From a virus (taxonomy: Duplodnaviria > Caudoviricetes), in the IMG/VR virus record IMGVR_UViG_3300035670_000313, positions 1-50,081 of that record: DNA of 50,081 nt; one strand, given 5' to 3'. The notes beneath the pieces were generated by a model. The model was not told the origin of the DNA. It did not search any database and saw only the letters and a list, made by a program, of their open reading frames with translations. A program made the translations under genes and the position numbers. Shown piece after piece: positions 4,794-45,774 of this stretch. Position 1 is the first letter of the stretch. The number at the start of each line of letters is the position of its first letter.

Positions 4794-6122
4794 ATGGCAT
4801 TACCAACCAACGTTAATTACGGCACAGTAGTAGGCCAATTCCTACTTGCTTACGCTGACAGCTCGGATGTCGACCCACAACCAGATGGCATTCCTGCTAA
4901 AGGTTTTATTTACTTCCGTCCATCCCCAATTAAGCTTCTTGATGCCACTTCATCGCCTAACCCAGTAACCATTCTTCCTGCAGTTGTTGAGTGTGCGCTT
5001 GATGCTGAGGGTTACCTACTTGGTGGAGACGGAACTCGTGGCGTAAGACTAGTTGCAACTACTGACACTGACCTAAACCCAGTTAACTGGACTTGGACTG
5101 TAGAGTTCCGCCTGACTGACCAGGACGATGTTCCGGTCCCACTTCCATCTTTTAGCATTGCGCTTCCATCTAGCACAACCGTAGACCTAACCACTGTTAG
5201 CCCTGTGCCTGACGCAAATGGCACCTACTATCTAGTTGGACCGACTGGCCCTCAGGGACCCCAGGGTATCCAGGGTATCCAGGGTGAAGCTGCTACCATT
5301 ACCGTTGGTACCGTTACGACTGGGGCCGAGGGTTCTAGCGCATCTGTAGTCAACTCAGGAACTTCTGGCGATGCCGTTCTAGACTTTACAATCCCACGCG
5401 GAGACACAGGCGCTCAGGGACCAATTGGACCACAGGGTGAGACTGGACCGATTGGTCCAACCGGTGCGACTGGTATCGAGTGGCAGGGCGCATGGAACAG
5501 CTCTACTGACTATGTAAACAACGATGCAGTGTTTTACAATGGCGCTTCATGGTTTGCAGCAGGTGACCCTCCAGTTGGTGATACGCCATCAGAATCTTCA
5601 CTTTACTGGTTCCCGCTAGCCCTTCAGGGTGCCACTGGAGCGACAGGTCCACAAGGACCACAGGGTGAGGTTGGCCCACAAGGTGAGCAGGGTATTCAGG
5701 GTGAAATCGGATTCCCAGGATTTAAATTTGATACTCGTAGAACCCTAACTAACCAGTATGTTCCTGGTGAGATTGTAGAATATCTTGGCGACTACTTTAT
5801 CTGCCTGGCAAACAACGATGCCATACCGCCAACAGGCGGAGCAATCGGCGTTTACTGGGCCCCATATTCCTTCGTAGGGCCACAGGGAGATGCTGCGACA
5901 ATTGCAGTTGGCACAGTGACCACTGGCGCTCCTGGAAGCTCTGTAATCGTTACAAATTCTGGAACTAGCGGAGCCGCAGTATTTGACTTCACTATCCCAA
6001 AGGGTGACACTGGTGACATCGGAAACATCACCGCAATCTCTCCAGTAACCTATAACTCAGCAACCGCCGAGATTGGCTTTGACCCAGATGGCATCGCCTA
6101 CATCGACGGTGGAACTGCATGA
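4794..6122 (+). CDS. Minor tail/fibre protein with collagen segments
   Basis: G-X-Y blocks, two copies of ATI.VGTVTTG...NSGTSG.AV.DFTIP.G, small CBM-like modules. Confidence 0.75.
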   Translation: MALPTNVNYGTVVGQFLLAYADSSDVDPQPDGIPAKGFIYFRPSPIKLLDATSSPNPVTILPAVVECALDAEGYLLGGDGTRGVRLVATTDTDLNPVNWTWTVEFRLTDQDDVPVPLPSFSIALPSSTTVDLTTVSPVPDANGTYYLVGPTGPQGPQGIQGIQGEAATITVGTVTTGAEGSSASVVNSGTSGDAVLDFTIPRGDTGAQGPIGPQGETGPIGPTGATGIEWQGAWNSSTDYVNNDAVFYNGASWFAAGDPPVGDTPSESSLYWFPLALQGATGATGPQGPQGEVGPQGEQGIQGEIGFPGFKFDTRRTLTNQYVPGEIVEYLGDYFICLANNDAIPPTGGAIGVYWAPYSFVGPQGDAATIAVGTVTTGAPGSSVIVTNSGTSGAAVFDFTIPKGDTGDIGNITAISPVTYNSATAEIGFDPDGIAYIDGGTA

Positions 6123-30766: not shown

Positions 30767-31431
30767 TAATCTACCTTCAATCCATTGACCCAAGTTCTGC
30801 CAGCGTCACCGCCCCAAGCGTCCCACGCAACGCGTCCTGGGCTTGGGTAGCCCTTCTCGCCCGCATTGAAACCAGTGGCCTGCTTGTCCACTGCATGGCG
30901 AGCAAAGTAAGCCCGCATCTTTACTACTACATCTCGGCCTACAGAGCCACCAGCAGCGAGCTGTGAAGCTCGACGGCGACCAGTCGCAGTAAAGCCATCG
31001 CCAGCCTTGCCTTCTTCAATCCACTTGATTGCTCGCTTAGCTGCACTCTGGACTCCAGCTGGAACCTTGTAGCTTGCAGCTGCTTCACGCAGTGACTCTC
31101 TTGCGTTTACAAGCCCGGGAGGAATCATTGCAAATCGACATGCGCCATCCTCTTCGATGTCCTGGTCAATCGCACTGCACTCAATCCCATCCTCGGTCAT
31201 CTGGTGGAACACACAGTTACCGCACTTTACACCAATCTCAAGGTTTGGGTTGTCAGCGGGTCCATCGTAGCCAGCATTTACTGCGCTGCCTTCGGACTGG
31301 AACTTGCCGAACTCTTGTACAACGCCGAGTAGAGCATCAACCACTGCCTTCTCGTCGCCATCAATCTGTGCGTAAAGGTCCTCGCTGAACTCTTTTACTC
31401 TAATAGGTAGTTTCTTTTTGCTCGCTGGCAT
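30766..31431 (-). CDS. Two-domain protein: HiPIP-like 4-Cys domain plus conserved phage domain (AWDAWGG)
   Basis: CGNCVF...C...IEEDGACRF; KMRAYFARH...PSPGRVAWDAWGGDAG. Confidence 0.6.
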   Translation of the reverse strand: MPASKKKLPIRVKEFSEDLYAQIDGDEKAVVDALLGVVQEFGKFQSEGSAVNAGYDGPADNPNLEIGVKCGNCVFHQMTEDGIECSAIDQDIEEDGACRFAMIPPGLVNARESLREAAASYKVPAGVQSAAKRAIKWIEEGKAGDGFTATGRRRASQLAAGGSVGRDVVVKMRAYFARHAVDKQATGFNAGEKGYPSPGRVAWDAWGGDAGRTWVNGLKVD

Positions 31432-31874
31432 TAATCCCCCCACCCTTCCTTTAATATAGTTGCATGTTTGTTATTGCGTAGGTAAATTATACCATGGCGG
31501 ACCGCGTCGTTGGCGTGGGGCCTGCCTGGGGCGTGGAATCCAAGCTTACGGAGTCGGTCATCTCCACAGAGTGCCTTTTGGCTTGGCTTCTGGTAGATAA
31601 TAGGTGTCAGTGCCTTGGGGTATAATGCTTCCAATGCACCGATGATGTAGACAGGGCTAAGGTCAGCCCCATAAACACCCTCTCGCAAGTCGAATGACTC
31701 ACAGATAATCTGGTCGAACTCCCAATCTTCTAGTTCGTCCCAGTGGAAGTCAAGGAATCCCTGCAAACCATTTGGAATCTGCCAAGTTTTGATTAGGTTG
31801 TACTCTGTGTCTCCGTATTCAATTATGGCTACTCCAGTTGTCCCGCCGGGGTCAAGGCTTAGCATTGTCGTCAT
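31431..31874 (-). CDS. RuvC-like Holliday junction resolvase
   Basis: LSLDPGGTTGVA, ICESF, HANDA. Confidence 0.8.
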   Translation of the reverse strand: MTTMLSLDPGGTTGVAIIEYGDTEYNLIKTWQIPNGLQGFLDFHWDELEDWEFDQIICESFDLREGVYGADLSPVYIIGALEALYPKALTPIIYQKPSQKALCGDDRLRKLGFHAPGRPHANDAVRHGIIYLRNNKHATILKEGWGD

Positions 31875-32034
31875 TTAACTTCTCCTCCTTCATCTTTACT
31901 ATCTGAGTCATCTGGTAGCAAGCCACCGACAACGGGTACCTGAAGCCCATTTCGTACTTCATGGCATGAAATAGAACTGCCTCTTGGTCGAACTTTACGT
32001 TATCGAACTTTGCGTTTCTACTGTAGTTATCCAT
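31852..32034 (-). CDS. Hypothetical protein
   Basis: 60 aa, coupled to neighbours, RBS GGAGG. Confidence 0.5.
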   Translation of the reverse strand: MDNYSRNAKFDNVKFDQEAVLFHAMKYEMGFRYPLSVACYQMTQIVKMKEEKLNDDNAKP

Positions 32035-34238
32035 TACGCCAATACCTCCAAGTATGTCTTACGATTGTCCACAACGGCATGTACCCTGGCTTGCGAACTA
32101 AGCGCTTCCACCATATCATCGAACTCCCTCTTCCTCTTATTATTGAACTTGCGGTAAGCCTCCTCGTAACGGACTCGGCCACCTCGGTCAACCACGAAGG
32201 CTTCGAGCTGGTCAACATCCCTCTGCCACTCGGACGCTGAGATTGCACTTGCCATGCGGACTAGGTTCTCGAACCACTCTTCCGAGTAGTGGATTGCAGT
32301 CAGCATGTGCTGTAGCTTGACTTCGTCAGACTTATCAGCCATCGCTAGCAAGATTGCACACTTCCAGACAGACAATGCAAGACGCTGGCGAGAAGGCTCG
32401 ATAGACTCCTTCTCTCTGTGCGACTCGGCATAGTTACCCATCTCCCACTTGTACTGATTGAAGCGCTCTAGCGAAGCTTGGCTGAGTCGGACTGGCCTTG
32501 GGTTGGGCTGGCCCTTCTTCTGCCAGTAAGTCACAGCATCAAACAACTTGCGAACCATCTCGTCGAGCATGGTGTCCTTGACAACCACTTCGTACTCGTC
32601 AGCCTGCTGGATGTCCTCCAACTCTCGGCTTCGCTCTGGTGCATCTGCGGTCACGTAGATAAAACGTGCCAAGAATCCAGAGCGGAAGTACTCAGTTGTC
32701 AGAACATCGGCAACCTTACTGGTGATACCCATCAAGTACATGATGAAGTTGGTCTCAGCACGTTCGGTCTGGCGCTTGTCCTTGGATGAACGAATCACAA
32801 CCGGGACACTACCGTCGTAAAGCTCGGTGTAACGCTCAGCAGCTGAGGCCATGTAGGTCTTGTTCATAAAGTCCTTGAACATACCCTGAACCTCATCGCG
32901 GTGCAGCAAGCTGGTCTTCTTGTCGCGGTCAGCAAGGATTGCAGTCACACCTTCAGGCGTAGCGTCCGAACCGATGTCAATCTGGTAGCCACCAAACTTC
33001 TCGTAGGCACGAATCACACGCAACATCAGGTTACGGCTGGTCGACTTACGAGTTAGCGTGGTCTCACCTAGCACCATGAACCACAGGTTCAAGCCCATCT
33101 TGCCGTAGCGTGGCACAGCGTAGCCCCAGTCGGAAAAGACTGCGGATAGCACAGTGAATGCCGAAGCAATCTGGTAGCTCAGTGCACCGTCGGTCTTGGA
33201 CCTAGCCCACTTTACATAGCTGTCGATGAAGGTTGGCTCAAGTGCCACGACCTCACGCTCATCCTCGGTAAGGAATGACACCTCAACCTTGTCGAATCGT
33301 GCAACAGGTGCGTCCTCAGTAATTGGCTCTGGCACATAGTTAGCTTCACCCTGCTCTGTGATGTAGCTCTGGTGCGCCCGCTGAATCTCACGCCACAAGT
33401 CACCGTCAGCATCTGAACGCTTTGGGCGGTCAGGGCTGTGGTACTTGTTGCACTTAGCGTGGCGAGCAACAGTGAAGACTTCCTCTGGGGTCAAGCCCTC
33501 GCGGAATAGCTCCATCTCCAGCTTCCAGAGTAGGCGTGACAGGTCAGCGTTGAACGCTGGCTGCTCCATGTACAAGCCGACAATCTGTGGGTTGTGAGAT
33601 AGCTTCTCAAGCACCTCAAGAATTGGTGGGAACCCCTCAGGCATCGGGAGGTCGGCCATCTCTCGGATAGGCTCGACCTCCACGTCGCCGTAGACTGAAT
33701 TGATGTCATCAAAGCTGTAAACCTGGCCGGTGCTGGTGGCTTCGATGGACCAAGACTCTTCGCGCTTTAGGTTGCGGGTGTTTGGCAGGCGAAGCAACTT
33801 AGTTGTGTTCCAGCCAGACTTGTCGCAGCCCTGGTGAGCATGTGCGTAGGCAATCTTCTTCGCTAGCAAGGCAGCTTCAAGCGGCTCGACCTCTTGGTCA
33901 AGCATCCAGTAGGTGTGCCATCTCTTGTCTGAAGTTTGCACAGAGATGCTAGGCTCAACTAGGAAGTTCTCTGGCTGGCAAGCATCAGCGTCGGCGTAAA
34001 TTACGTGAACGGTCTTGGCGTTCTCTTTGATGCGACGCGGTGCGTTAAATAGGATTGGGGAAAAGTACACGTCCTCCATGGCGTGAGCAGTTGCAAAGGC
34101 AACCATCTCATGCTTCTGCTCTGGGTACTCGTAGAACTTCTGCTCGGTTAGGTCGCCAGTGGAAGCACTGCGTACGACAAGCGTAGCGATGCCTGTTGCG
34201 TCGCCATAAATCGCTGTCAAAAAGTCTGCTGTTTTCAT
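32034..34238 (-). CDS. Primase (RepB/AEP-like) fused to helicase-like domain (DUF3987-like)
   Basis: YADAD, QTS..RWHTYW, LLRLP.T.N; GETTLTRKST and LLHRDE. Confidence 0.8.
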   Translation of the reverse strand: MKTADFLTAIYGDATGIATLVVRSASTGDLTEQKFYEYPEQKHEMVAFATAHAMEDVYFSPILFNAPRRIKENAKTVHVIYADADACQPENFLVEPSISVQTSDKRWHTYWMLDQEVEPLEAALLAKKIAYAHAHQGCDKSGWNTTKLLRLPNTRNLKREESWSIEATSTGQVYSFDDINSVYGDVEVEPIREMADLPMPEGFPPILEVLEKLSHNPQIVGLYMEQPAFNADLSRLLWKLEMELFREGLTPEEVFTVARHAKCNKYHSPDRPKRSDADGDLWREIQRAHQSYITEQGEANYVPEPITEDAPVARFDKVEVSFLTEDEREVVALEPTFIDSYVKWARSKTDGALSYQIASAFTVLSAVFSDWGYAVPRYGKMGLNLWFMVLGETTLTRKSTSRNLMLRVIRAYEKFGGYQIDIGSDATPEGVTAILADRDKKTSLLHRDEVQGMFKDFMNKTYMASAAERYTELYDGSVPVVIRSSKDKRQTERAETNFIMYLMGITSKVADVLTTEYFRSGFLARFIYVTADAPERSRELEDIQQADEYEVVVKDTMLDEMVRKLFDAVTYWQKKGQPNPRPVRLSQASLERFNQYKWEMGNYAESHREKESIEPSRQRLALSVWKCAILLAMADKSDEVKLQHMLTAIHYSEEWFENLVRMASAISASEWQRDVDQLEAFVVDRGGRVRYEEAYRKFNNKRKREFDDMVEALSSQARVHAVVDNRKTYLEVLA

Positions 34239-34265
34239 TGCTCCTCCATTCTGGTTGTCCTCCTA

Positions 34266-34300
34266 TAAACTTAAGTAAGCCCTCCCGTTACTTAAGTTTA
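34266..34300. repeat. Perfect 13-bp inverted repeat upstream of primase
   Basis: TAAACTTAAGTAA-gccctcccg-TTACTTAAGTTTA. Confidence 0.85.
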
Positions 34301-34323
34301 ATCGCATAAGCTTAATTATGCAG

Positions 34324-34402
34324 TGCCCTAGCTGAGAGTCGAACTCAGCAGTCCATAGAGATGAAACGGAGGAGGGAGGAGATGGACCACTCCTGTTAGG
34401 GC
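34324..34402 (-). ncRNA. tRNA-like RNA 1 with anti-SD loop in place of anticodon loop
   Basis: GCCCTAA..CTAGGGC-A acceptor, CTGAG-TTCGACT-CTCAG T-arm, GTCCAT/ATGGAC stem closing a 25-nt pyrimidine loop. Confidence 0.7.
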
Positions 34403-34406
34403 TTGT

Positions 34407-34478
34407 GATGGTAGACGAGCAGAAGACGTAATCGAAGTTTTTGCTAGTGAAGTAGGTTAGCAGAACCCGCCTACCATC
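34407..34478 (-). ncRNA. Structured RNA between two tRNA-like modules
   Basis: 14-bp closing stem GATGGTAGGCGGGT/GCTCGTCTACCATC, inner hairpin TGCTA/TAGCA. Confidence 0.55.
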
Positions 34479-34479
34479 G

Positions 34480-34530
34480 TCCCTAGCCGAGAGTCGAACT
34501 CGGAGCGCCATTGCCATACCGTATCTAGGG
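34480..34530 (-). ncRNA. tRNA-like RNA 2 (acceptor + T-arm only)
   Basis: CCCTAG..CTAGGG-A and CCGAG-TTCGACT-CTCGG. Confidence 0.7.
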
Positions 34531-34532
34531 TT

Positions 34533-34560
34533 GTGCGTTTAAGCAGTCGCACCCCTGCCC
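34533..34560 (-). other. H-type pseudoknot in SSB 3' region
   Basis: GGGCAG/CTGCTT and GTGCG/CGCAC interleaved. Confidence 0.55.
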
Positions 34561-34572
34561 TTGTTTAGGAGA

Positions 34573-35037
34573 TTACCAAGGCTTCTCATCTACTGCGGTT
34601 GCGCCCAAGGATGCAAGAACATCCTCACCGCTAGTGGCCTTATCGAAGCCACTCACCTCGTTGCGAGGAGCGCCATTGATGTCCGAGCCAACCTTGACTC
34701 GAACTCCGATACCCTTGCCCAAGATATCGGCGGTAGCTGGAACCTTGAAGTTGCCAGCCTTTACGTCGTAGCCAAGCGACTTGAAGAAAGCAGCTGCCTT
34801 CCATGCGTCGTTGCCTGCGTACAGTGGGACGTAGCTGAAGACTCGGCGGTTCTCGTACTGCCCCTCAGAGATGCGGAACTGTACATTGAAACGCGGCTTG
34901 CCCTCGTTTGGTCCGGAGCGAACAGTCTCTTCCTTGATGTCGTAGACAGTCGCGTTGTAGGAGCCAGCAGGAATCGGGTCTAGTGAACCGGTCTTGGACT
35001 CAAGCGCATCTGCGCTAAATGAAATGGTGTAACTCAT
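34573..35037 (-). CDS. Single-stranded DNA-binding protein (DUF669-like)
   Basis: PIPAGSYNATV, GQYENRRVF, C-terminal KPW; follows Sak4-like ATPase. Confidence 0.75.
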   Translation of the reverse strand: MSYTISFSADALESKTGSLDPIPAGSYNATVYDIKEETVRSGPNEGKPRFNVQFRISEGQYENRRVFSYVPLYAGNDAWKAAAFFKSLGYDVKAGNFKVPATADILGKGIGVRVKVGSDINGAPRNEVSGFDKATSGEDVLASLGATAVDEKPW

Positions 35038-35798
35038 TATTTACCTCCCTTGATTAGTGAATAGATTTTCTTCAGGCTTGGCTCGGTAATCACCGGAGGC
35101 AAGTTGAAGCGGTTTTTGGTAACCAGTCTGTCAGATGACTCTACGACTAGCACACGCTGGGCTGAGCCGTCTTCCTTCTTCTGAGCGGTTAGGTAACCAA
35201 TGATGTCAGGTATTCCTGGCAAGTCCTTCTTGGAACCACCTGGGATGTTTGGAACGGTCTTCACCGCACCGGTGTTCTCATCCTTCTGGTCCTCGGCGTG
35301 AGTCAGAATGATGGAAGTGAATGGAGCAGAGTGCAAGGCTCGGACTGTATCGTTAGCCCAAATCTTCAGGTCGCCCCACTTGCCGAACTTGTTACCCTTG
35401 TTCTCTGGCTTCTCGCCAAAGAACTTCTCGGCCCTGTCCATCGCAACACCGAAGGTGTCGATGATAACAGTCTTGTACTTGTGCTTGACGTTGATTAGGT
35501 CAGTGATTACCCTATCCAACTTCTCGTGAGAGTCGACGTTGATTACGTCGACTTCCTTGAAGTCGCGGGCAATAGCTGATGCTCCACCCTCGACATCGAT
35601 TAGTAGCACAGGTGATAGCTCTGCAAGCTCAGCTGCTGAAGCAGCTAGCCAAGTCTTGCCTCGGCCTGCATCACCGTAGATAAGAATCGTCTTCGGTGCG
35701 TTGAGTGCCTCTGCCTTGTGAATAAACTTGGCAAATGATAGCTCTGGGAAGTCGCTTCCCTTGGTGGCAGCTGGTGCTGCGGTTGACGTTTCGCCCAT
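35037..35798 (-). CDS. Sak4-like / AAA_24 ATPase (recombinase)
   Basis: GDAGRGKT Walker A, VIIDT, ILTHA. Confidence 0.8.
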   Translation of the reverse strand: MGETSTAAPAATKGSDFPELSFAKFIHKAEALNAPKTILIYGDAGRGKTWLAASAAELAELSPVLLIDVEGGASAIARDFKEVDVINVDSHEKLDRVITDLINVKHKYKTVIIDTFGVAMDRAEKFFGEKPENKGNKFGKWGDLKIWANDTVRALHSAPFTSIILTHAEDQKDENTGAVKTVPNIPGGSKKDLPGIPDIIGYLTAQKKEDGSAQRVLVVESSDRLVTKNRFNLPPVITEPSLKKIYSLIKGGK

Positions 35799-39519: not shown

Positions 39520-39761
39520 AAGTCCTCCAACTCATCACGCTTGCCGTCATCTAGGAATAGCTCTGAATACAACTGCATCACTCGCTCCTCGGCAGAACCG
39601 AATGTCTCAAAGTATTCACGCCCGTTTGTCCTCGGTGCTGTAACCCAAAGGTCTAGCTCCTCGTCCACGCCGAACTCAATCGGCTTGCCAACCTGCTCTG
39701 AGTAAAACTCGGTCAGGTTTGTTGCTGTCTCGTGTAGCTCGAACCATCTATCGTCCCGCAT
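39516..39761 (-). CDS. Hypothetical acidic protein
   Basis: RBS AGGAGG; coupled. Confidence 0.55.
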   Translation of the reverse strand: MRDDRWFELHETATNLTEFYSEQVGKPIEFGVDEELDLWVTAPRTNGREYFETFGSAEERVMQLYSELFLDDGKRDELEDL

Positions 39762-40230
39762 TGATTACCTCCTGTACAACACCTTCTCGATAAAGCACCG
39801 ACTGAACCCATAGGTCTCCGTCAACTGCCGTAATGTTTTCACCGTCTTCATCAATGGTGAATGTCGCTTCGCCTGTCTGTTGGTCAGCGCCGAATGCCAC
39901 GATGCGAACCGCAAGCTGGTCACCGTATCGCACAACTCTGAGTGCGGACTGTGGCACAACGCTTGAATCGTCTACGCCTGCATCCTCAATCAGCTTGCGA
40001 ATCGTACCTGGGTCGGACGAACCATAAGCCATGCCAATCTGCCTAGCCGAATGCCCGTCAACCAAAGCCAATCGAACCGCATCAATCAGCTCGTCGTAAT
40101 ACTCTTTGGTCTCGGCTTCGATGAATGTCTTTAGCTTTTCCTGCGCTACCTTGATAGCTTCTCGGTGCTTAGCTCTGGCTTCGGTAATGGCAGATAGTCT
40201 GCCGGTGTCCTGCTTTGCTACTCTTCCCAT
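39748..40230 (-). CDS. Hypothetical protein with possible HTH
   Basis: GHSARQIGMAYGSSDPGTIRKLI. Confidence 0.55.
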   Translation of the reverse strand: MGRVAKQDTGRLSAITEARAKHREAIKVAQEKLKTFIEAETKEYYDELIDAVRLALVDGHSARQIGMAYGSSDPGTIRKLIEDAGVDDSSVVPQSALRVVRYGDQLAVRIVAFGADQQTGEATFTIDEDGENITAVDGDLWVQSVLYREGVVQEVINAGR

Positions 40231-45626: not shown

Positions 45627-45662
45627 TTGTTCCTCCTGTTTAGGTTACGGCGCTCGCCGTAG

Positions 45663-45708
45663 TGACTAGGGGAGGAATCGAACCTCCCCTAAGGCTCCAG
45701 CCCTAGTC
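45663..45708 (-). ncRNA. tRNA-like RNA 3 (acceptor + T-arm only)
   Basis: GACTAGG/CCTAGTC-A and GGAGG-TTCGATT-CCTCC, 14-nt linker. Confidence 0.7.
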
Positions 45709-45774
45709 TGCCGAGTAATCGCCCGATGCGATTAGTTCCGCTAGCAAGTCTTCAATGTCTAGATAGTCTTCCAT
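45703..45774 (-). CDS. 23-aa acidic peptide
   Basis: MEDYLDIEDLLAELIASGDYSAD; coupled by TAATG to upstream ORF. Confidence 0.4.
   Translation of the reverse strand: MEDYLDIEDLLAELIASGDYSAD

Follow-up and report, generated by a model that had tools for sequence, protein, structure and literature searches.

Related RNAs and the element considered here

The C4 RNA of phages P1 and P7 is described as being cut from a precursor by RNase P and as carrying a loop that occludes the ribosome-binding site (RBS) of its target mRNA (PMC5320573). The subject here is a phage RNA that may act in a comparable way: a tRNA-like element without a D arm, found on the minus strand at 34324-34402 of IMG/VR virus record IMGVR_UViG_3300035670_000313, a complete virus record of 50,081 bp with direct terminal repeats that was analysed over its whole length (the window). 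The element lies within a minus-strand replication/recombination module, between the genes for a DUF669 (SSB-like) protein and a DUF3987 primase/helicase, and in the place of an anticodon arm it has a helix that presents an anti-Shine-Dalgarno (anti-SD) loop. Computation establishes its fold, its conservation in a family, covariation, a fixed genomic slot, and a co-variation of loop and RBS that is specific to the primase gene. The interpretation favoured here, to which an even chance is given, is that the RNA is excised by tRNA-processing enzymes and pairs with the Shine-Dalgarno (SD) region of the primase mRNA, functionally like the C4 antisense RNA.

C4 is the closest described system in function. 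Its target lies downstream on the same operon, and the element is likewise phage-encoded and has a loop complementary to the RBS of a gene in its own operon (11 contiguous pairs; primase-specific co-variation). C4 is, however, a three-hairpin RNA instead of an acceptor/T-arm shape, it controls an antirepressor immunity operon and not a primase, and the element does not match C4 in Rfam. In structure, the closest systems are the tRNA-like domain of tmRNA and the D-arm-less tRNAs, which share with the element an acceptor and canonical T loop, a GG-containing strand for the D arm, and another helix for the anticodon arm; compared with tmRNA, the element (65-84 nt across its family) has no tag reading frame, pseudoknot ring, or G3:U70 pair. 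In architecture, the closest is MALAT1/mascRNA, in which RNase P cleavage is described as freeing a tRNA-like RNA and leaving a protected 3' end (PMC8457004, PMC13170383). Both loci place a tRNA-like RNA directly 3' of a compact A-rich structured element, but the MALAT1 system is eukaryotic, has a triple helix instead of an H-type pseudoknot, and releases a mascRNA with no anti-SD function, and cleavage at the phage locus is a prediction. The element belongs to none of these three systems.

Bacterial Y RNA (YrlA), which some phages encode as well, is described as a non-coding RNA with a tRNA-mimicking module (PMC4201824). The module is the point of likeness; the element has no Rfam match, and YrlA is not known to have an anti-SD loop. 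The ends of YrlA lie in the Ro-binding stem, and it has a D-arm mimic. In Gram-positive small RNAs of the RsaE/RoxS type a C-rich loop pairs with SDs, and in the engineered 'tRNA scaffold' an inserted functional RNA takes the place of the anticodon arm, for stability and processing; the former are not tRNA-shaped and the latter is a laboratory design, and the element would combine both naturally.

Architecture of the tRNA-like element

The element and its parts, in the order in which they are read, are as follows.

34324-34402, minus strand: D-arm-less tRNA-like RNA with anti-SD loop (sequence, family covariation, and a match to the family's covariance model R1 at 72.4 bits, E 1.6e-17)
34402-34396, minus strand: acceptor 5' strand, GCCCUAA
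34395-34390, minus strand: linker CAGGAG, 6 nt and GG-containing
34389-34382, minus strand: arm 5' strand, UGGUCCAU
34381-34357, minus strand: 25-nt CU-rich loop containing CCUCC three times in overlap; presumably the functional single strand, an anti-SD resembling the 16S 3' tail
34356-34349, minus strand: arm 3' strand, AUGGACUG
34348-34332, minus strand: T arm, CUGAG-UUCGACU-CUCAG
34331-34325, minus strand: acceptor 3' strand, CUAGGGC
34324, minus strand: discriminator A, followed by C at 34323

An earlier sequence-only reading of this DNA had described a tRNA scaffold that lacks a D arm and carries an anti-SD loop, and this description is borne out by the sequence and by the covarying family; all of the parts it listed lie on the minus strand where it had placed them. 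Its 8-nt linker and 6-bp stem represent the correct helix without the two outermost pairs, U.G and G.U, which bring the arm (UGGUCCAT-type) to 8 bp. The CCUCC motif that it saw in the loop is present, but in three overlapping copies instead of two.

The acceptor consists of six Watson-Crick pairs and an A.C at 7:66. Canonical tRNA features include the acceptor stacked on a 5-bp T stem, a UUCRANY T loop, and a discriminator base; a canonical cloverleaf is not formed, since the linker has 6 nt and no D arm and the loop has 25 nt, not 7 nt. ARAGORN makes no call at 34324-34402, its only call in the window being an odd 'tRNA-???' at 45662-45750. A search of the whole window with the 4227 Rfam families (cmscan, gathering score) returns no match; at E ≤ 10 over 34150-34650 there is no match to tRNA (RF00005), C4, or YrlA, and two snoRNA families (E 1.1 and 2.4) are taken as chance matches. 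The predicted fold of the 79-mer is better than that of 199 of 200 shuffled sequences (z -3.24), and the three-helix tRNA-like shape is the minimum-free-energy structure in the five relatives folded; these and all other energies given here are nearest-neighbour estimates that ignore tRNA tertiary contacts.

A family of structured RNAs upstream of the primase gene

Searching with the primase protein retrieves 79 related IMG/VR loci at 56-95% identity, and the T-arm motif is found just 5' of the primase gene in nearly all of them. ARAGORN, applied to 76 of the upstream regions, recognizes true tRNAs (Asn-GTT, Trp-CCA, Thr-TGT) in 24 and nothing in the other 52. MAFFT alignments A1-A4 mis-register the variable arm; covariance model R1 was seeded from alignment A5 alone, whose 10 sequences (of 69 unique ones in the family) share a 6-nt linker and have no spacer. 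A single full-length copy is detected by R1 in the window and in 73 of the 79 primase loci. The six loci without a match (L009, L023, L028, L029, L047, and L068) have at most 186 nt upstream of primase, and true tRNAs are not matched by R1 at E ≤ 0.01.

The 76 aligned R1 rows, two of which are weak matches to an arm-less element described below, collapse to 55 distinct rows. In this alignment, which is fitted to the model and hence favours structure, 94.6% of cells are paired, compared with 64.6% when partners are shuffled (a level of pairing reached in 0 of 500 shuffles) and 34-45% when partners are slid; the T stem is paired in 100% and the acceptor in 93.3%. Double-sided changes occur in 17 of the 18 pairs and in all three helices, with 309 double-change cells observed and 83.7 expected. 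Independent support comes from RNAalifold applied to a MAFFT alignment of 23 sequences, in which four T-stem pairs have 8-13 double changes and the acceptor has 2-10. Anchored arm stems have a mean of 7.1 bp versus 3.0 in shuffled sequence, and only 1.6% of shuffles give 7 bp or more. Across the family the arm helix has 5-9 bp and the loop 10-25 nt.

Conservation of individual parts is best seen in 34 distinct sequences whose loci were retrieved by protein homology, a choice that introduces no bias regarding the loop. The 5' strand of the arm occurs in 26 different versions. The loop, in contrast, is conserved, a point on which the sequence-only reading had staked its proposal: it has 11-25 nt in these sequences and is 91% pyrimidine, with CUCC in 32 of 34, CUCCU in 31, CUCCUUU in 21, and CCUCC in 18. 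The linker contains GG in all 34 and UGG in 28, GG being the expected stand-in for G18-G19 of the D loop, which dock on the T loop. UUCGAUU or UUCGACU accounts for 30 of the 34 T loops. The acceptor is followed by A and then C in at least 23, most other parses being off by one register, and ACCA is encoded in four. The linker of the window copy, CAGGAG, is unusual, shared with loci L003 and L004 and replaced elsewhere by YUGGUR; linker and loop are therefore self-complementary in these three.

A pattern scan of IMG/VR added at least 116 loci, at least 51 of them with an R1 match. When 28 of those 51 were examined by tblastn, DUF669 and/or primase was found to adjoin the element in 24, so that in the sample examined the family is tied to one replication module; the other four are weak R1 matches (24.9-32.4 bits; L115, L175, L150, and L124) with neither gene beside them. 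Many of the 23 further R1-positive scan loci are, by contig name, the same contigs as primase loci. Two of the weak matches outside the DUF669-primase synteny, L115 1139-1204 (plus strand; 32.4 bits) and L175 2530-2595 (minus strand; 27.5 bits), have a D-arm-less parse and CUCCUUU loops, that of L175 reading UUACCUCCUUUC; analogues from different phage lineages are one possible source of these matches, chance another.

In the cultured phages Amigo, Nonagon, Yappy, CN1A, CMP1, and Jojan60 there is no anti-SD element, the best R1 score being 17.6 bits, and most of the better R1 matches in cultured relatives coincide with annotated tRNA genes. A blastn search of 34200-34620 against 50,697 GenBank phage records gives no match. 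Searches of the openly accessible literature yielded no description of a tRNA-shaped anti-SD RNA in phages, and such a family is apparently undescribed. The element is almost certainly a member of a real structured RNA family, composed of an acceptor, a GG linker, a variable helix with a CUCC loop, and a T arm between DUF669 and DUF3987 genes; the window copy has each of these features.

The position of the element within this slot is fixed. It invariably comes first behind the DUF669 stop codon and an H-type pseudoknot, heading the tRNA slot before the primase gene, with a distance to the primase AUG of 14-1017 nt (median 87). In 24 of 74 loci, 1-3 true tRNA genes (tRNA-Asn, -Trp, or -Thr) separate the element from primase. 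The sequence-only reading had offered, as one of two possibilities, a switch acting in cis on primase translation; with this range of distances and with intervening tRNA genes, a strictly local switch is unlikely as the general mechanism.

Complementarity of the loop to the primase ribosome-binding site

The features needed to consider the partner of the loop are the following.

32034-34238, minus strand: DNA primase/helicase gene (DUF3987; phrog_10514 'DNA primase'), the presumed regulated gene
34241-34264, minus strand: double SD region, with AGGAGGA at 34264-34258 and GGAGGAG at 34247-34241; start codon at 34238-34236
34265-34300, minus strand: hairpin of 13 bp in the primase leader, with SD-like loop CGGGAGGGC; helix kept in L002 and L003

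Directly before the primase AUG, GAAUGGAGGAG (34251-34241) is complementary to the loop segment CUCCUCCGUUU over 11 contiguous pairs, two of them G.U, exactly as the sequence-only reading had reported. That reading also considered a kissing interaction of CCUCCC with the loop of the 13-bp hairpin; the hairpin exists, but its GGGAGGG loop occurs only in the closest relatives and is not conserved, and the loop in L002, CGGACUGUC, is not SD-like.

Whether the primase RBS is the target is best judged from co-variation across the family. Loops were paired with translation initiation regions (TIRs) in 52 distinct loop/TIR combinations forming 19 clusters, and permuted by cluster. Loops bind the primase TIR of their own locus with a mean of -16.04 kcal/mol, compared with -13.64 kcal/mol for non-own TIRs, a difference that none of 50,000 permutations reached; with 17 clusters, an earlier run had given p = 5e-5 for energy and p = 5e-4 for longest helix. 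The own primase TIR ranks 1st-4th in 10 of the 19 clusters, and in 16 of 19 the loop binds it more strongly than does a 15-nt 16S-tail motif, a comparison in which longer loops are advantaged. The same permutation test applied to the orthologous TIRs of six other module genes is not significant for any of them:

Primase TIR: n = 19, p 5e-5
Exonuclease TIR: n = 12, p 0.08
Sak4 TIR: n = 15, p 0.23
DUF669 TIR: n = 18, p 0.72
60-aa gene TIR: n = 14, p 0.15
phrog_1981 gene TIR: n = 16, p 0.13
225-aa gene TIR: n = 8, p 0.84

Since all tested genes share the same phylogeny, shared descent alone fails to explain the primase signal. Ranked against the other local gene starts, the primase TIR comes first in 9 of 13 representative loci, second in 2, and third in 2; 4 of 17 representatives were dropped because the gene caller failed to reproduce the primase start. 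Loop and RBS match in clade-specific ways (CUUCUUCUCC with GGAGAAGAAG, CCUCCUCCCUG with CAGGGAGGAGG, and UCUCCUUUU with AAAAGGAGA), and in the clade of the window a loop with double or triple CCUCC occurs together with a leader with double GGAGG. Loops with more CUCC tend to go with primase leaders that have more GGAG ahead of the AUG (rho 0.61, p 0.006, n = 19, without phylogenetic correction). Judged by sequence complementarity, the primase initiation region is the best-supported partner of the loop.

Several results weigh against a function of the loop in pairing with the primase SD region. In the window copy the minimum-free-energy structure (-28.8 kcal/mol) pairs AGGAG-GG of the linker with part of the loop, the tRNA-like fold being estimated at -19.9 kcal/mol. 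When the window loop was scored against 38 nt (35 nt upstream plus the start codon) at 80 crude gene starts, the primase TIR, for all its specific co-variation, came only 4th (-20.5 kcal/mol), behind those of 39748-40230 (-27.9), 4794-6122 (-21.3), and 31431-31874 (-20.9 kcal/mol). A whole-genome sliding-duplex scan (33,368 windows), dropped in favour of gene-start regions, places purine-rich, Gly-codon-rich coding stretches on top and the primase RBS outside the best 25. In 8 of the 19 clusters the own primase TIR is 9th or worse of 19 TIRs, and the co-variation is carried by a subset of clades; permuting by cluster reduces phylogenetic dependence but does not fully remove it. The contrast with the six control genes is weakened by the approximate assignment of their starts and by SDs that are weaker than that of primase. 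Specificity is modest, because any anti-SD loop pairs with any strong SD (foreign primase TIRs, mean -13.6 kcal/mol), and in L049 (573) and L053 (865) the TIR of the Cas4-like exonuclease is a better match to the loop than the primase TIR. Finally, the only RNA-labelled sequence runs are stored as contigs, which are silent on RNA ends and abundance.

Some of these results would be expected if the released RNA were a general mimic of the 16S tail that titrates many host or early phage SDs, with translation shut-off or an early-to-late switch as the outcome, or that acts as a decoy for a factor to which the 16S 3' tail or pyrimidine-rich RNA is a binding or cleavage target, for example S1 or an anti-SD-cutting toxin; primase would then be one of many partners. 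A motif of the 16S 3' terminus matches CUCCUUU(C), and the conserved loop core fits this terminus beyond the core anti-SD, some loops reading ACCUCCUUUC (L121, L147). The substantial pairing with foreign primase TIRs, the better exonuclease match in two loci, and the true tRNAs between element and primase all agree with such a role, as does the finding that 8 of the 10 best-pairing gene starts in the window are on the minus strand, the strand of the replication module. A general mimic does not account for loop variants that depart from the 16S tail (CUUCUUCUCC, UUUCUCUCUUU, CCUCCUCCCUG) and are matched by the primase RBS of the same clade, nor for co-variation with the primase TIR alone, and a stoichiometric sponge would require ribosome-like abundance. 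This explanation is regarded as unlikely, if worth keeping in view.

In two clades the exonuclease TIR is complementary to the loop over an extended, clade-specific stretch, such as GGGAGAAAGAG with CUCUUUCUCCC, which hints that the exonuclease gene is a second target. Strong SDs are concentrated on minus-strand genes, including the replication module. Several plus-strand structural genes (starts at, e.g., 28081, 12150, 15117, 8546, and 3384) have no GGAGG-type SD; a UAGGAUAAAAUAGA-like motif recurs there instead, with a TAnAAT box some 7-9 nt ahead of the start codon. It may mark late promoters, with leaderless or near-leaderless mRNAs as their product, or be an initiation signal of another type.

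Predicted excision and mechanism of the element

In the favoured interpretation, acceptor, T arm, and the GG linker that replaces the D arm would form a tRNA-like body, and the helix in place of the anticodon arm would present the loop with its CUCC(UUU) anti-SD core. The element would be transcribed with the early replication operon, between the SSB-like and primase genes. Its acceptor/T-arm shape, and its place heading a tRNA array in an operon with no predicted minus-strand terminator, lead us to infer excision in the manner of a tRNA: RNase P would cut at G34402, and 3' trimming would be followed by CCA addition after A34324, giving a 3' end of ...GGGCACCA where the genome reads A-C-U-G. 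The excised small RNA would then accumulate. An acceptor/T-arm minihelix with 3' RCCA suffices as a substrate of RNase P, and tmRNA and C4 RNA are natural non-tRNA substrates. Until processing, the loop would pair with the SD region of primase mRNA in its own transcript, and after processing it would do so in trans; with true tRNAs intervening so often, a hairpin switch that works only locally is unlikely to be the general mode. By competing with the 30S subunit, this pairing in vivo would repress primase translation and provide dosage or negative-feedback control, and the upstream pseudoknot would remain as a protective 3' end of the upstream mRNA. The clade of the window looks like an elaboration, with three CCUCC, an AGGAG linker able to mask the loop, an SD-like hairpin loop, and two SDs before the AUG.

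Excision could also be the whole of the function, the tRNA shape serving as RNase P/tRNA-maturation punctuation between SSB and primase messages and the pseudoknot shielding the new 3' end, with a loop that is incidental or protein-binding. In distant cultured phages the SSB-primase slot is occupied by tRNA-shaped elements that lack the anti-SD arm: the pseudoknot and then two annotated tRNA genes in Arthrobacter phage Amigo, tRNA-Leu in Curtobacterium phage Yappy, and an arm-less mini tRNA-like with encoded ACCA in Clavibacter phage CN1A; the window itself has two arm-less versions (34530-34480 and 45708-45663). MALAT1/mascRNA is a precedent in that RNase P cleavage there is described as leaving a structured, protected 3' end (PMC8457004, PMC13170383). 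Left unexplained are the extra helix and conserved CUCC loop in 55 distinct sequences, with a stem that is repeatedly replaced, and the co-variation of loop and primase RBS. A role in processing is compatible with a role in pairing; only a loop without any function in pairing would set the two against each other, and in that exclusive form the processing role is rather improbable.

A third explanation is a tRNA mimic directed to the ribosome or to a synthetase, aminoacylated and/or bound by EF-Tu and acting on the ribosome like tmRNA or a viral tRNA-like structure. The acceptor/T-arm minihelix is intact, with an A discriminator, C74, and encoded CCA in some copies, and GG stands in the D-loop replacement, as in the tRNA-like domain of tmRNA. 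Position 3:70, however, is C-G in 50 of the 55 distinct rows and U-A in 5, with no G3:U70, and there is no tag reading frame, ARAGORN in tmRNA mode being negative on the window and the upstream regions; such a mimic is very improbable. A decayed tRNA gene or functionless chance structure, which failure of ARAGORN and Rfam to recognize the element might suggest, is scarcely credible: 73 of the 79 loci, with primase identity as low as 56%, have a single copy each, all three helices show compensatory changes, and the loop motif is conserved.

The pairing interpretation, if correct, would make the element a natural 'tRNA scaffold', in which a phage uses host tRNA-processing enzymes to make a regulatory RNA that mimics the mRNA-docking sequence of the ribosome. 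Phage antisense regulators would gain a new structural class, and tRNA mimicry a new use among DNA phages; the element would also be a compact system (about 80 nt plus a known target RBS) in which to study competition between an RNA and the 30S subunit for SDs. A broader version, offered tentatively and doubtful as it stands, is that Actinomycetota phages (freshwater-type) encode a free-standing, tRNA-packaged anti-SD tail that is excised by the host, is stable, and competes with the 30S subunit, first for the primase SD and more weakly for those of other SD-led early or host messages, shifting translation toward late genes with weak or no SD; pseudoknot and tRNA shape would be the counterpart of the MALAT1/mascRNA device. 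Whatever the function, annotation gains a covariance-supported family, a pseudoknot before the tRNA slot, and arm-less mini tRNA-likes, all of which are missed by current tRNA finders and Rfam.

Replication module, host, and transcription

The genes of the module are, in order, a SNF2-type helicase, a WhiB-domain protein, a PD-(D/E)XK (Cas4-like) nuclease, AAA_24 (Sak4-like), and DUF669 (SSB-like), followed by a 334-nt non-coding stretch and the 734-aa DUF3987 primase/helicase. The gene immediately upstream of the non-coding stretch is:

34573-35037, minus strand: DUF669/SSB-like gene, with hairpin and pseudoknot at its 3' end; its syntenic counterpart carries an SSB annotation in phages Amigo and Nonagon

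The nearest cultured relatives of the primase, at no more than 38% identity, are from Arthrobacter, Curtobacterium, Clavibacter, and Microbacterium phages; together with the WhiB gene, this points to a predicted host among the Actinomycetota. Searching 185,579 prokaryote genomes for primase relatives gave 11 pattern matches, none of which was confirmed, and therefore no prophage or host was found. In a scan of 33900-35200, one promoter-like site lies within the element (9/12 matches; 0.6 expected by chance) and no terminator is detected on the minus strand. Of four public sequencing runs, all stored as contigs, the one metatranscriptome contig spans only 34044-34274.

The intergenic region and neighbouring RNA modules

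Between the DUF669 stop codon and the anti-SD element, and at one distant site, the window has further structured modules.

34559-34581, minus strand: hairpin CCUUG/CAAGG enclosing the DUF669 stop codon (UAA, 34575-34573), from sequence
34533-34558, minus strand: compact H-type pseudoknot with S1 GCAG/CUGC, S2 GUGCG/CGCAC, and A-rich loop 3, from sequence
34480-34530, minus strand: arm-less mini tRNA-like with 6-bp acceptor CCCUAG/CUAGGG, 21-nt linker, T arm CCGAG-UUCGACU-CUCGG, then A, C, from sequence
34407-34478, minus strand: long hairpin module between both tRNA-like elements; absent from L002, where the pseudoknot abuts the anti-SD element
45663-45708, minus strand: second arm-less mini tRNA-like, at the ARAGORN 'tRNA-???' call

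The pseudoknot has an S1 of 4-5 bp, a loop 1 of 1-2 nt, an S2 of 5-7 bp, and an A-rich loop 3. It ends 0-5 nt 5' of the element in 22 of 32 distinct upstream regions, the parser also firing in 40 of 300 shuffled sequences; in four more regions (L002, L005, L013, and L074) the parser took another combination and the pseudoknot sequence is visible. Of 18 parser hits, 14 same-length copies were used for covariation, those in L004, L013, L029, and L038 being dropped as chance-like hits elsewhere in the loci. Pairing is 98.7% versus 83.4% with shuffling and 12-39% in slid controls, and there are 25 double-change cells versus 7.5; since the choice of rows favoured pairing, the evidence lies in the double changes alone. 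The same pseudoknot is found in Amigo (L197 ~1541-1571; 38% primase identity), before the two annotated tRNA genes between SSB and primase, and it therefore belongs to the junction of SSB gene and tRNA slot and not to the anti-SD arm. Speculatively, it may cap the 3' end of the upstream mRNA following RNase P cleavage. At the site of the stop-codon hairpin, relatives have CUUGG/CCAAG, CCUGG/CCAGG, and UCUGG/CCAGA (by eye, not counted).

The T stem of the nearer mini element differs from that of the main element by one compensatory change, C-G to U-A, and its homologues in L003 and L004 are weak R1 matches (23.2 bits). The mini tRNA-likes of the window and that of CN1A (L200 ~1422-1472) consist of an acceptor, a 14-21-nt GG linker, and a T arm, followed by A-C (ACCA in CN1A). 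Each is located shortly 5' of the RBS of some gene, and they could be RNase P punctuation signals.

The long-stem hairpin of about 70 nt is an optional intergenic module, partly conserved inside, which is also present in L003, L055, L048, L060, and L049 and has no Rfam match. Contigs of other samples diverge from the window at 34324/34325, the 3' end of the element, and at 34539, just past the pseudoknot; the region between the genes is therefore built as a mosaic of RNA modules that can be exchanged, and the breakpoint at 34539, in another sample, fits modular insertion of the 34407-34478 hairpin. An 84-codon frame at 34263-34517 was considered as protein-coding and rejected, having no PHROG match and lying in a region that differs by whole modules among relatives. 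Other structured intergenic inserts, with a GGUGCAAGUCC-like motif, are present in L004 (2790-3000), L021, and L022.

A second kind of non-canonical tRNA-like, 79 nt long and not called by ARAGORN, is found at 2892-2970 in L048, L051, and L066, at 2891-2969 in L079, and at 7762-7840 in L033. It has an acceptor GGGCYNG, a AAUGGUGUCGAUUG-type linker, a long arm, and a normal T arm, and in some relatives it lies directly 5' of the primase RBS. In Amigo (L197 1575-1735), the annotated tRNA-Gly(ccc) of 78 nt and tRNA-Val(gac) of 83 nt are unusually long for these isoacceptors and may be non-canonical tRNAs.

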